DNA of 64,000 nucleotides from Phycisphaerae bacterium (GCA_029260055.1 JAJDDX010000382.1:2562-66561), one strand, 5' to 3'; counted from the stretch's first letter, positions 37,055 to 40,336 are shown. Notes: generated by a model from the letters alone, not told the origin. Translations and numbers: made by a program.

Positions 37055-39124
37055 ATGAGTGTCGACCTGTCGACAGTCCGGAACATCGGCATCGCCGCCC
37101 ACATCGACGCCGGTAAGACCACCACCACCGAGCGTTTCCTTTTCTATACGCGCCGCACCCACAAGATGGGTGACGTGGACGCGGGCACGACGACCACCGA
37201 CTTCGACGAAGAAGAGCAACGGCGCGGCATCACCATCTACTCAGCCGCGGTCAGTTGTCCCTGGAAGAACCACACGATCAACCTGATCGACACGCCCGGC
37301 CACGTCGACTTCACCGCCGAGGTCGAGCGAGCGCTGCGCGTGCTAGACGGCGCTGTGGCCGTCTTTGACGCGAAGGAAGGCGTCGAGGCCCAGTCGGAAA
37401 CGGTCTGGCGGCAGGCGGACAAATATGCCGTACCGCGCATCTGCTTCATCAACAAGATGGATCGTATCGGGGCCGATTTCGAACGATCGGTCATCTCGAT
37501 CCGCGAGCGACTCGGAGCCAACCCGGTTGCGATTCAGTGGCCCATCGGAGCCGCCGACGACTTTGCGGGCATCATCGACCTGATCGAGATGAAGGCGATC
37601 TACTACGAATCGGCGGAACTCGGGGCGTCGTTCCGCGAGGCCGACATTCCGGCCGAACTCGCGTCCGTGGCGCAGGCATGGCGCCGTCGGTTGCTCGAAA
37701 CGGTCGCCGAGACCTCTGACGAACTGCTGGACAAGTACCTCACCGAGGAGACGCTGTCGGCGCAGGAGATCAAGGGCGCCATTCGGGCGGCGACCATCCG
37801 CCGTGAGATGGTGCCGGTGCTGTGCGGCAGCGCGCTGAAGTACGTCGGTGTACAGCGCATGCTGGACGCGGTTTGCGATTACCTGCCGAGCCCGCTCGAC
37901 ATGCCGCCCGTCAAGGCGCACGACGCCAAGCGAACGGACGTGACGCATGAGCTCCCCTGCGACCCCAACGGCCCGCTGGCAGCACTCGTGTTCAAGATCG
38001 TCACGGAGAAGCCCGTTGATCTCTACTACATGCGGATCTATTCGGGCACGCTCAAACCGAATGCCCGACTTCTCAACGCGAACACGGGCGAGAAGGAGAA
38101 CATGTCGCGCATCAACCGCATGTTCGCCAAACGCCGAGACGTGTTGGACTGTGCGCTCGCCGGCGATATCGTGGCGGTGGTCGGCCCGAAACATGCCCTG
38201 ACCGGCCACACCCTTTGCGATGCGCGGCACCCGATATTACTCGAATCCATCACGTTCCCGGAAACGGTCATCAGCGTGTCGGTGGAGCCCAAATCGTCGA
38301 GGGATCGTGACAAGCTGCTGGACGCGCTCAAGGCGCTCGAACGCCAGGATCCCACGGTCTCGGTCAGCATCAACGAGGAGACCGGTCAGACACTGATCGC
38401 CGGCATGGGCGAACTGCACCTCGAGATTGTCGTACAGCGGCTCCGGTCGGATATGAACGTCGACGCCCTAGTCGGCAAACCGCGCGTGTCGTACAGGGAA
38501 ACCGTGACCGCCGTCGGCGAGGCTGAAGCCCGGTTTCAGCGGGTTATCGGGGGGCGGGAGCACTTCGCCGCCGTCCGATTGCGGATGGAAGCCCGCGAGC
38601 ACAGAGCGGATCGGGCGAGCTTCGAAATCGCGTCCGAGGTGCCCGCCGGGACGCTGCTTCCCGAGTATGTACGCGCGATCGAGGAGGGCATCACGGATGC
38701 CGCGCAAAGCGGAATCCTCGGCGGCTACCCCGTCATCGACTGGCGCGTGACGGTCCTGGGCGGTGAGCAGCACGCGCAGAACAGCTCCGAAATGGCATTC
38801 GAGTCGGCCGCGCGCATGGCGTTTTATGAAGTCATGAAGGCTTCCGGTCCAGTGTTGCTTCAGCCGATCATGGAAGTCGAGGTTGTGACCGTGGACGAGT
38901 ACTTCGGCGGCATCGTCGCCGACCTGAACGGGCGCCGGGCGGTGGTGCGTCAGACGGAGATCCGCGGGACTGATCGAGTGATTTCTGCCGACGTCCCCCT
39001 CGCTGAGATGTTCGGCTACGTGACTCGCCTGCGGAGCCTGTCTCAGGGCCGTGCTACGTCGGCCATGGCGCCCTCCCATTATGCGCGGGTTTCCCCGGAG
39101 GAAACGCGGGCTCTGGTGGGGTAG
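37055..39124 (+). CDS. fusA: Elongation factor G
   Basis: [26 protein letters not shown] and NKMD G-motifs. Full length. The last 73 codons (including the stop) are duplicated 1136 bp downstream. Confidence 0.97.
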
Positions 39125-39145
39125 ATGGGGTGCCCGGCGGGCTCG
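38906..39145 (+). repeat. Direct repeat L: fusA 3' terminus (functional copy) plus about 21 nt downstream
   Basis: Aligns without gaps to 40042-40281 at an offset of 1136. 203 of 219 coding nt are identical, and similarity fades about 21 nt after the stop. Confidence 0.9.
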
Positions 39146-39251
39146 CTACAACGCGGTCGACTTACGGTGGAACCACATGACGAGTGTTCGTGTCCTGACA
39201 GGCAAACCACAGTCGACGATGTGACTGGGCGGTGGGGAAGACCAGGGGCAG

Positions 39252-39689
39252 TCAGAACGCCAACATGAACTGATCTTCTTCCCCGTTGTACACGAAGAGG
39301 CATTGCCTGAGTACGTCTCTGCCGATCAGCGCTTGAATGCCTTGCATGCTAAGTTGAGATTCTATAACGGGCATCTCGCCCATCGTCATAGATATATCCG
39401 GATGGCTGAGTGTGATGCTGACATCGTATTGGGGGCGAAGCGTCGGCGTTCCCCCTGTAGATGGTGTGTGAATGGGCACTTGGCCGGTAGGGCTCAGCCC
39501 AAGAGACGAAAGAGCCTGCGAATCAACGCAGGTGCCGCTTGCGCCAGTATCGACCAAGCCTCGGATCTTTATCGGCTGCGGAACTTGCTGCTTGGCATCT
39601 TCGAGAGCCTCCCGCCTGGGGCGGCTGACGCCAACATACAACTCCACCATGGGGCCGTCTGACGAGACTGGCAGTGTCAGGTGTGGCAC
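39252..39689 (-). CDS. Retropepsin-like (clan AA) aspartic protease, 145 aa
   Basis: Catalytic LVDTGASGT motif and a downstream ALIGRDVL flap/dimer motif, in a size typical of homodimeric retropepsin-like proteins. The GTG start overlaps the upstream gene by 13 nt. An alternative ATG lies at 39650. Confidence 0.7.
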   Translation of the reverse strand: MPHLTLPVSSDGPMVELYVGVSRPRREALEDAKQQVPQPIKIRGLVDTGASGTCVDSQALSSLGLSPTGQVPIHTPSTGGTPTLRPQYDVSITLSHPDISMTMGEMPVIESQLSMQGIQALIGRDVLRQCLFVYNGEEDQFMLAF

Positions 39690-39913
39690 GTATCAAGTTC
39701 TCTCGTGAAGTACTGAATCTGGTCGACGGCTCGAATCTTCTTCACGAGGAATGGTTCCAGTTTGCATTTCTCGTAACCAGCTCTGATAGCATCGGAATAC
39801 GTGTCGAACACGCCAAGCACGTCCTGCTGATGGATCAAGACGTACTTTCCCTCGTCAGACAGCAGGTCTTCCAGGCTGTCTTTGTATACTTTCAGTTCTG
39901 CTTCAAGAGCCAT
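39677..39913 (-). CDS. Small (78 aa) uncharacterised partner protein of the protease
   Basis: MALEAELKVYKDSLEDLLSDEGKYVLIHQQDVLGVFDTYSDAIRAGYEKCKLEPFLVKKI... The ATG at 39913 is preceded by GAGGTG. From memory it resembles small DUF5678-like proteins; this was not verified. Confidence 0.6.
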   Translation of the reverse strand: MALEAELKVYKDSLEDLLSDEGKYVLIHQQDVLGVFDTYSDAIRAGYEKCKLEPFLVKKIRAVDQIQYFTRELDTCHT

Positions 39914-39951
39914 TTCACACCTCGCGCGCAAATACGCATGTCTACCCTAAT

Positions 39952-39980
39952 ATAGTACCGTATCGGAGCCCTGGCGGCAA
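39952..39980 (-). promoter_or_regulatory. Candidate promoter of the two-gene cassette
   Basis: The minus strand reads TTGCCG-N17-TACTAT within the AT-rich patch GGTACTATATTAGGGTAGA, about 40 nt upstream of the 39913 start. Confidence 0.3.
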
Positions 39981-40041
39981 GTCTGAACCGGGCAGATTCT
40001 CTCCGCCGGCTCGCGATCGCGGCACGCAGATTCTGTGCCCC

Positions 40042-40260
40042 GGCAGCATCGTGGCGGACATGAACGGCCGCAGGGCGGTGGTGCGTCAGACGGAGATCCG
40101 CGGGACTGATCGGGTGATTTCTGCCGACGTACCCCTCGCGGAGATGTTCGGCTACGTCACTCGGCTCCGGAGTCTGTCTCAGGGCCGTGCGACCTCGGCC
40201 ATGGCGCCCTCCCATTATGCGCGGGTTTCCCCGGAGGAAACGCGGGCTTTGGTGGGGTAG
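40042..40260 (+). pseudogene. Displaced fusA 3' fragment (direct repeat R; repeat similarity extends to about 40281)
   Basis: Encodes the last 72 residues of EF-G with only two amino-acid differences, both within the first 7 codons. There is no fusA homology upstream of 40042 and no ribosome-binding site. Confidence 0.85.
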
Positions 40261-40336
40261 GCGGGGTGCGCGGCGGTTTCGAACGCCGGCGGTCGGGTTG
40301 CGGCGCAAACACACCATAAATGTTGAAGAATTGCGG

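Follow-up and report, generated by a model that had tools for sequence, protein, structure and literature searches.

Two allelic copies of the fusA terminus bracket a two-gene cassette in a Phycisphaerae genome: a probable insertion with a replacement gene end

In a 64,000-nucleotide (nt) stretch of the genome of a Phycisphaerae bacterium (GCA_029260055.1 JAJDDX010000382.1:2562-66561; hereafter the window), the end of fusA, the gene for elongation factor G (EF-G), is present twice, and a small two-gene cassette (the cargo) lies between the two copies (Table 1). The first copy (copy 1) forms the end of the intact fusA gene, and the second (copy 2) stands as a displaced terminus in front of the S10 operon. 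Because the divergence between the copies is nearly exclusively synonymous, and because the spacer that follows the gene has diverged to the level of the synonymous sites, the copies are most likely the orthologous ends of two lineages and not the products of a local duplication. The two termini thus appear to be functional fusA alleles from lineages separated by a synonymous divergence (dS) of ~0.3, one of which was probably imported together with the cargo.

A repeat search places gap-free direct repeats of 241 nt, with 91% identity, at 38905-39145 and 40041-40281, at a spacing of 1136 nt. The original prediction, which was made from the sequence before this analysis, had given the same offset and the same absence of gaps, with the left edge misplaced by 1 nt. 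Its count of identical coding nucleotides, 203 of the 219 in the last 72 codons and the stop codon (92.7%), and its abrupt upstream edge are both reproduced by base-by-base comparison, in which similarity is lost abruptly 5′ of 38905 and 40041. The end of the repeat, which it had set 21 nt past the stop codon, lies farther downstream: blastn carries the repeat on to 39177 and 40313 (274 nt, 88%), and a multiple alignment with relatives identifies the stretch after copy 1 as a diverged copy of the spacer between fusA and rpsJ. This spacer homology, with one 6-nt indel, reaches the −35 box of the S10 promoter (CTGACAGGC at 39195-39203 versus TTGACAGGC at 40337-40345). In total ~300 nt are duplicated, the homology being weaker in the ~80 nt beyond the fusA stop codon, and the longest identical runs between the copies are 56 nt and 38 nt. 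The reading frame of copy 2 is intact and has no start codon at its edge. The same frame stays open for at least 47 codons farther upstream, into the cargo arm (39901-40260, + strand), with no start before the GTG at 40051; this extension is probably due to chance. A search of 38500-40800 against Rfam gave no match, on which ground a structured RNA element was rejected, and no convincing terminator was found between fusA and the protease gene of the cargo.

Table 1. Features of the fusA-rpsJ region and the cassette, in window coordinates.
Feature	Coordinates	Strand	Description and basis
fusA (EF-G)	37049..39124	+	Intact open reading frame of 689-691 codons, the last 72 of which form repeat copy 1; open reading frame and translation
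Candidate recombination core	38904..38922	.	Perfect palindrome TCGGCG-GCATCGT-CGCCGA at the left edge of copy 1
Repeat copy 1	38905..39203	+	fusA codons 618-689 and stop codon (to 39124), then ~80 nt of spacer homolog with degenerate −35 box CTGACAGGC
Cargo gene 2, retropepsin-like (clan AA) aspartic protease	39252..39689	-	145 amino acids, GTG start; Pfam
Cargo gene 1, DUF5678-like protein	39677..39913	-	78 amino acids; sub-threshold match to PF18929, 16.6 bits
Cargo upstream arm	39914..40040	-	Weak promoter candidate: −35 TTGCCG (39980-39975), 17-nt spacer, −10 TACTAT (39957-39952)
Repeat copy 2	40041..40345	+	Displaced, promoter-proximal fusA terminus: 72 codons and stop codon (to 40260), then spacer to the −35 box
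S10-operon promoter	40337..40364	+	TTGACA-16-TATCCT, complete only downstream of copy 2; conserved in L181, L103, L105 and L107
rpsJ (S10)	40428..40739	+	First gene of the S10 operon; 88-93% identity to relatives by tblastn; present on Logan contig L193

The type of difference between the two termini is the principal evidence for their origin in two lineages. The coding parts differ at 16 positions, 14 synonymous and 2 non-synonymous, which corresponds by the Nei-Gojobori method to a dS of 0.28, a non-synonymous divergence (dN) of 0.013 and a dN/dS of 0.047; in the non-coding tail, where indels occur, identity falls to 73%, a divergence about equal to that of the synonymous sites. An old local event, in which the end of fusA was duplicated in tandem in situ while the cargo was being inserted, through template switching or as a long target-site duplication, and diverged afterwards, is extremely improbable in the light of these values. 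A neutral copy is expected to show ~57% non-synonymous differences, against the 2 of 16 observed, and when a duplication in place was simulated with copy 1 under constraint and copy 2 evolving neutrally, 2 or fewer of 16 differences were non-synonymous in 0.05% of the trials (P = 0.0005). The foreign composition of the cargo also speaks against a purely local origin. What agrees with such an origin is that the frame of copy 2 has no stop in its 72 codons, that copy 1 is followed by a degenerate −35 box (CTGACA), which looks like one in decay, and that a leucine-to-methionine change in copy 2 affects a residue that is leucine in all seven relatives. A variant of the same idea, in which copy 2 was retained as a functional EF-G domain V peptide or as a regulatory RNA, shares this very low probability, since copy 2 begins in the middle of the domain, offers no start until the GTG at 40051, has no promoter on its strand and matches nothing in Rfam.

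The coding differences are not evenly placed: 6 of the 16 are concentrated in the opening 32 nt of the repeat, 38905-38936 (binomial P = 0.02), and both non-synonymous changes fall in its first 19 nt. A diversity-generating retroelement with template and variable repeats was considered for the repeat pair and rejected, because there is no reverse transcriptase and because only 4 of the 16 mismatches involve an A in copy 2, nearly all of the mismatches being synonymous third-position changes. If the copies are orthologous ends of two lineages, the near absence of non-synonymous change in both suggests either that the insertion is recent relative to the divergence of the alleles or, alternatively, that the displaced copy periodically supplies the functional fusA end in cells without the element.

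The sequence between the repeats is compositionally distinct from its surroundings. The intervening 895 nt (39146-40040) have a GC content of 55.3%, which is the lowest of any such segment in the window (mean 62.7%, standard deviation 2.0), and GC at third codon positions is 0.61-0.63 in the cargo genes versus 0.81 in fusA. The claim in the original prediction that the insert is low in GC thus stands, whereas its figure of ~50% does not, as only the gene for the 78-amino-acid protein is as low as 49%. The two overlapping genes that had been noticed antisense to the ribosomal operons are both present, with an overlap of 13 nt.

Comparison with relatives indicates that the cassette is an addition. 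The closest EF-G homologs belong to metagenome-assembled genomes (MAGs) of Phycisphaerae and Planctomycetota and to metagenome contigs; taken overall, identity is 56-73%, and over the last 72 residues it is 63-81%. Among the matches listed, to which all the comparisons of loci given here refer, the best EF-G identity is 61% for genome contigs, 69% for metagenomes (with the C-terminal 230 amino acids as query) and 73% for the protein database, and no congener was found in the genome, metagenome and protein searches. In the 13 closest loci that show both genes (L021-L026, L102-L105, L107 and L181 being those named), fusA is followed by rpsJ after ~130-420 nt, without cargo and without a second terminus, and in one of them, L181, the unusual gene order rpsL-BioY-rpsG-fusA-rpsJ is that of the window. 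This empty arrangement in relatives suggests that the insertion is derived in the present lineage. The direct succession of fusA and the S10 operon, which had been assumed to be the normal order, therefore holds for this clade, and the empty site that had been proposed as a check is found, though in distant loci (56-81% amino-acid identity).

Because the contig is derived from a metagenome, the reality of the arrangement has to be considered separately. In the Logan assembly of run SRR15505517, contigs L001 and L193 match 39083-40059 and 40219-43204, respectively, at 100%. L001 spans the cargo and both of its junctions, and the two contigs together cover both variants of the repeat, from which it follows that both variants, as well as the abrupt junction between the cargo and the middle of fusA, are present in the reads. 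Exact matches to the 93-amino-acid form of S10, to S7 and to the cargo proteins are confined to short Logan contigs of one run, and an exact-protein look-up gave no record for fusA or for the 103-amino-acid form of S10. An assembly artefact or strain chimera, in which a chromosome with an empty site and a separate molecule or strain carrying the cargo and a fusA fragment were threaded into a tandem, is very unlikely. Such an error would suit the metagenomic origin of the contig and the fact that the Logan contigs, built with k = 31, break exactly at the 56-nt identical run: both end 30 nt inside this run, as expected where the assembly graph branches. The junction between cargo and mid-fusA (40040/40041) and the link from the cargo to the spacer after copy 1 nevertheless lie within the single, independently built contig L001. 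Furthermore, as the longest identical run is 56 nt, ordinary reads can phase the copies; the 16 variants allow reads of 100-150 nt, or an assembly with k above 56, to resolve the path. Even if the tandem were artificial, a cargo unit with a truncated fusA terminus would exist, and the same biology would apply to an excised or strain-polymorphic form.

The arrangement may have arisen by a site-specific insertion of the type of prophage e14 or of a cis-mobilizable element (CIME), in which a recombinase exchanged the end of fusA for a replacement end brought by the incoming DNA; the probability of this model is judged to be about even. According to the model, a horizontally acquired circular unit of 1136 bp, composed of ~300 bp of fusA terminus and spacer from a related lineage and 835 bp of cargo, would have entered through a single reciprocal crossover within the final 72 codons of fusA. 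fusA would have remained intact, since a copy of the terminus comes with the unit, the other terminus would have been left as a fragment before the untouched S10 promoter and rpsJ, and the cargo would have become bracketed by hybrid repeats. The crossover would most likely have been performed by a tyrosine-type recombinase at the left edge of the repeat, with GCATCGT as its core. The predicted attB is TCGGCG GCATCGT GGCGGA, the predicted empty site is ...TACTTCGGCG-GCATCGT-GGCGGACATGAAC..., and the predicted junction of the circle is ...TCTGTGCCCCGGCA-GCATCGT-CGCCGACCTGAAC.... What is left would be an integrase-less remainder, produced by deletion from a larger e14-like island, or else a unit of the CIME type that requires a recombinase in trans, and a cargo of the toxin-antitoxin or defence type could explain why only that part of the element persists. 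The repeat, the intact fusA gene, the purifying selection visible in the divergence of the copies, the empty sites of the clade and the occurrence of the mobile cargo family in different contexts are observed; the recombinase and its core, the direction of transfer, the function of the cargo and the mobility of the 1136-bp unit are inferred.

The abrupt start of the homology coincides with the candidate core. The 7-nt centre GCATCGT of the palindrome at the edge of copy 1 (38910-38916) is identical in copy 2 (40046-40052), and this palindrome is the only one of 6+7+6 form in 38800-40400; with 37 such palindromes in the 64 kb, the chance that one lies within 15 nt of the boundary is ~2%, by an estimate made post hoc. 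Two direct copies of the 9-mer GCAGATTCT, found nowhere else in the window, lie 34 nt apart in the upstream arm of the cargo (39992-40000 and 40026-40034), adjoining the junction with copy 2, and could be operator sites or arm-type sites of a recombinase.

The closest parallel is the cryptic prophage e14, which in Escherichia coli K-12 is bracketed by icd and the pseudogene icdC (PMC13626634). When icd and icdC were measured in the same way as the fusA copies, 153 of 165 nt were identical (92.7%), with 9 synonymous and 2 non-synonymous codon differences, and the homology showed an abrupt 5′ edge and faded in the terminator region past the stop codon. The e14 element (like phage 21 at icd) and the fusA unit therefore agree in that a replacement terminus is borne by the element, the target gene is intact and the displaced fragment lies at the far end, as well as in the degree of identity, the nearly synonymous nature of the differences (9:2 versus 14:2), the abrupt 5′ edge and the fading 3′ tail. 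They differ in that e14 is 15.2 kb long, encodes intE and xisE, targets icd and is documented to excise, whereas the fusA unit is 1.1 kb long and has no recombinase, and in that e14 resides in E. coli, whereas the fusA unit resides in an uncultured Planctomycetota/Phycisphaerae-like organism.

Integrase-less cargo is known from streptococci, in which elements that are integrative and conjugative (ICEs) and others that are integrative and mobilizable (IMEs) use the 3′ ends of rpsI, rpmG, rplL and fda as targets, and in which the related elements include CIMEs of 1.2-13 kb (PMC7563491). CIMEs are derived from ICEs or IMEs, could be detected in that survey only in tandem with one of them, and are thought to move only by means of the recombinase of a related element (PMC7563491). 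The fusA unit resembles CIMEs as an integrase-less cargo that is bounded by direct repeats of the att type where a gene for housekeeping or translation has its 3′ end. No cognate fusA-targeting element was found for it among the 160 fusA loci listed or the IMG/VR matches listed. The att repeats known from CIMEs are short, tens of base pairs, whereas those of the fusA unit extend over ~300 bp. Islands that target genes for tRNA or transfer-messenger RNA likewise integrate into the 3′ end of a gene and restore that end, but the target of the fusA unit is an essential protein-coding gene, and the three tRNA genes of the window (at 20745, 22412 and 58719) are not involved.

The proposal in the original prediction that an incoming element recombined into the end of fusA and brought a terminus with it is thus strengthened by the synonymous divergence, by the e14 control, by the empty loci of relatives and by the roving of the cargo pair described below. 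Several observations weigh against a site-specific insertion of this kind. The candidate palindrome, which was picked out post hoc, is confined to copy 1. Neither the states of relatives at the 16 variable sites nor the codon preference of the host decides which copy is native. As the original prediction had noted, no integrase is encoded in or near the cassette: Pfam searches of the insert genes and of the 20 larger non-ribosomal open reading frames of the window gave no integrase, excisionase, recombinase or transposase domain. The insert holds only the 78- and 145-amino-acid genes, with no genes for recombination or conjugation, and its non-coding arms, of 45 nt and 127 nt, are too small to contain the remnant of an integrase pseudogene. 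The relatives with empty sites, at 73-81% amino-acid identity in the terminus, are so distant that the comparison is made above the level of strains. No duplicated fusA terminus was found within the stored flanks of the 160 fusA loci, which come from genomes and metagenomes, nor any fusA-targeting element, and the four fusA matches in IMG/VR are three full-length EF-G genes and one fragment at a contig edge, with no terminus fragment beside an integrase. Finally, homologous cassettes are similar in DNA over precisely their two coding sequences and have no ends in common.

The main rival to site-specific recombination is homologous recombination without a dedicated recombinase, which is possible but on the unlikely side, and which could have followed either of two routes that are considered together. 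A circle of 1.1 kb that had looped out across the same pair of repeats in a donor could have been inserted by RecA in the manner of Campbell, or a linear donor fragment could have entered by homology-facilitated illegitimate recombination anchored in fusA. Either route would have used the ~300 bp of fusA and spacer that are 88-93% identical, and the cassette would spread among relatives with the conserved end of fusA as its homology handle. Such a process agrees with the lack of a recombinase in the window and with the structure, which is identical to that of a single-crossover integration. The ~300 bp of homology, with identical runs of 38 and 56 nt, could support the exchange, although runs of this length are short for efficient exchange by RecA at 9% divergence. 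The donor terminus is only ~7% divergent, so that the donor would be a close relative, and the homologs of the cassette have no conserved ends of their own. Homologous recombination leaves unexplained, however, why the homology starts abruptly at a palindromic site and how the first unit of cassette and terminus originated, and the e14 control gives the same signature of long homology with an integrase.

A further possibility, regarded as improbable, is that the 1.1-kb unit is itself a complete, recombinase-free selfish cassette, an addiction module resembling toxin-antitoxin systems, for which ~300 bp of the ultra-conserved junction from the fusA end to the S10 promoter would serve RecA as a homology handle. 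If so, RecA alone could loop such a cassette out and insert it at the same essential locus of any related genome without ever disrupting fusA or the S10 promoter. This recombinase-free mobility would be distinct from that of transposons, integrons and integrase-based islands, and would represent a novel route, and a very simple one, by which selfish cassettes spread. The cassette of an integron with its attC site, or a pair of transposon ends, was rejected as an explanation of the cargo, because the cassette ends are not conserved and because the folds of both arms are no better than those of shuffled sequences.

The two cargo genes appear to form a functional pair. The protease matches PF13650 (Asp_protease_2) with 30.9 bits, against a cut-off of 24.3, and PF00077 (RVP) with 22.4 bits, against a cut-off of 20.7. 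In an alignment of 42 homologs, D47-T48-G49-A50, G123 and D125 are invariant, R124 is conserved in at least 90%, and the N-terminus MPHLTL is also conserved; in view of these catalytic residues, the protein is apparently an active retropepsin-like enzyme. The protease has 117 homolog clusters, typically of 145 amino acids, and the 78-amino-acid protein has 42. The AlphaFold model of the 78-amino-acid protein (mean predicted local distance difference test score, pLDDT, of 79.6) has the order helix-strand-strand-helix-strand, and its fold had no match in the PDB. The 13-nt overlap of the two genes suggests that they are translationally coupled. The promoter candidate in their upstream arm scores below the threshold of the scan, so that its function is putative.

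The same pair is met again in more than 100 protein clusters, drawn from metagenomes and MAGs. The 78-amino-acid gene lies upstream of the protease gene wherever the contig reaches it, and the 13-nt overlap is present wherever the end of the smaller gene is visible. The genomic contexts of the pair vary: it lies between genes for Peptidase_M78 and QueC (L002), directly after HicB-HicA (L011), in the chromosome of a Bryobacterales member (L182), at the border of an integrated element that carries DUF3854, HTH_17 and HNH genes (L183, 1-6438) and within a Mu-like prophage with Portal_Mu (L186, 6001-9569). The last two contexts show that the pair travels on larger mobile elements elsewhere, and the restriction of DNA similarity to the coding sequences means that it lacks transposon-like ends. 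Neither the IMG/VR patterns nor the INPHARED phages contain the cargo protease, which has one distant match on a plasmid.

In L011, HicB-HicA and the cassette form one block that is bracketed by 56-nt direct repeats (3872-3927 and 5294-5349). These repeats are 86% identical and contain a GGCAGGTG...CACCTGCC hairpin, and the first of them begins within the stop codon of the gene upstream; in L011 this cassette family may be bracketed a second time by sequence derived from its target. No flanking repeats were found around the cassette in L002, L182, L183 and L186. A perfect near-tandem repeat of 79 nt (1547-1625 and 1634-1712) occurs in L182, a Bryobacterales MAG, inside an open reading frame of 608 amino acids that adjoins the cassette.

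From its architecture and contexts, the cargo pair may be a module resembling toxin-antitoxin or defence systems. Like type II toxin-antitoxin systems, it consists of a small upstream gene and a downstream enzyme gene that overlap, is patchily distributed and occurs in mobile contexts or near HicAB. It differs from them in that Pfam, NCBIfam, PADLOC and PHROGs assign neither protein to a known family of toxins or antitoxins. The protease has a weak match in PADLOC to the defence candidate PDC-M08B (E = 0.0025). A search of the literature gave no study of DUF5678, the word being found in an unrelated plant-pathology study, no link between retropepsin-like proteins and toxin-antitoxin systems, and no account of a pair of this kind.

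Other features of the window concern the surroundings of fusA and more distant genes. A gene for the biotin transporter BioY (35775-36338, + strand) lies between rpsL and rpsG in the str operon, and as the same insertion is found in the closest relative, L181 (1335-1913), it is a conserved feature of the clade. The tuf gene (20968-22170) is located 15 kb upstream of fusA, flanked by genes for tRNA-Thr and tRNA-Trp (20745-22485), and because tuf is located elsewhere, fusA abuts the S10 operon in this clade. A protein of 444 amino acids with a Fic/DOC domain is encoded at 15341-16675 (- strand) among genes for the cell envelope and sugar nucleotides. Three long open reading frames have no Pfam match at E <= 1e-5, namely 18209-20065 (- strand, 618 amino acids), 58851-60407 (+ strand, 518 amino acids) and 361-1002 (- strand, 213 amino acids).

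If the arrangement at fusA is correctly explained by an insertion with a replacement terminus, the core block of translation genes would not be immune to insertion, provided that the incoming DNA rebuilds the end of the gene and spares the promoter of the next. fusA would then join the 3′ ends of protein genes that are used as attachment sites, in a poorly sampled lineage of planctomycetes. The combination of repeats that diverge at synonymous sites only with a spacer that has diverged to the level of dS may serve as a signature of integrase-less events of this kind. The uncharacterised and widespread pair of a DUF5678-like and a retropepsin-like protein, the latter with an intact active site, is flagged as a candidate addiction or defence module.

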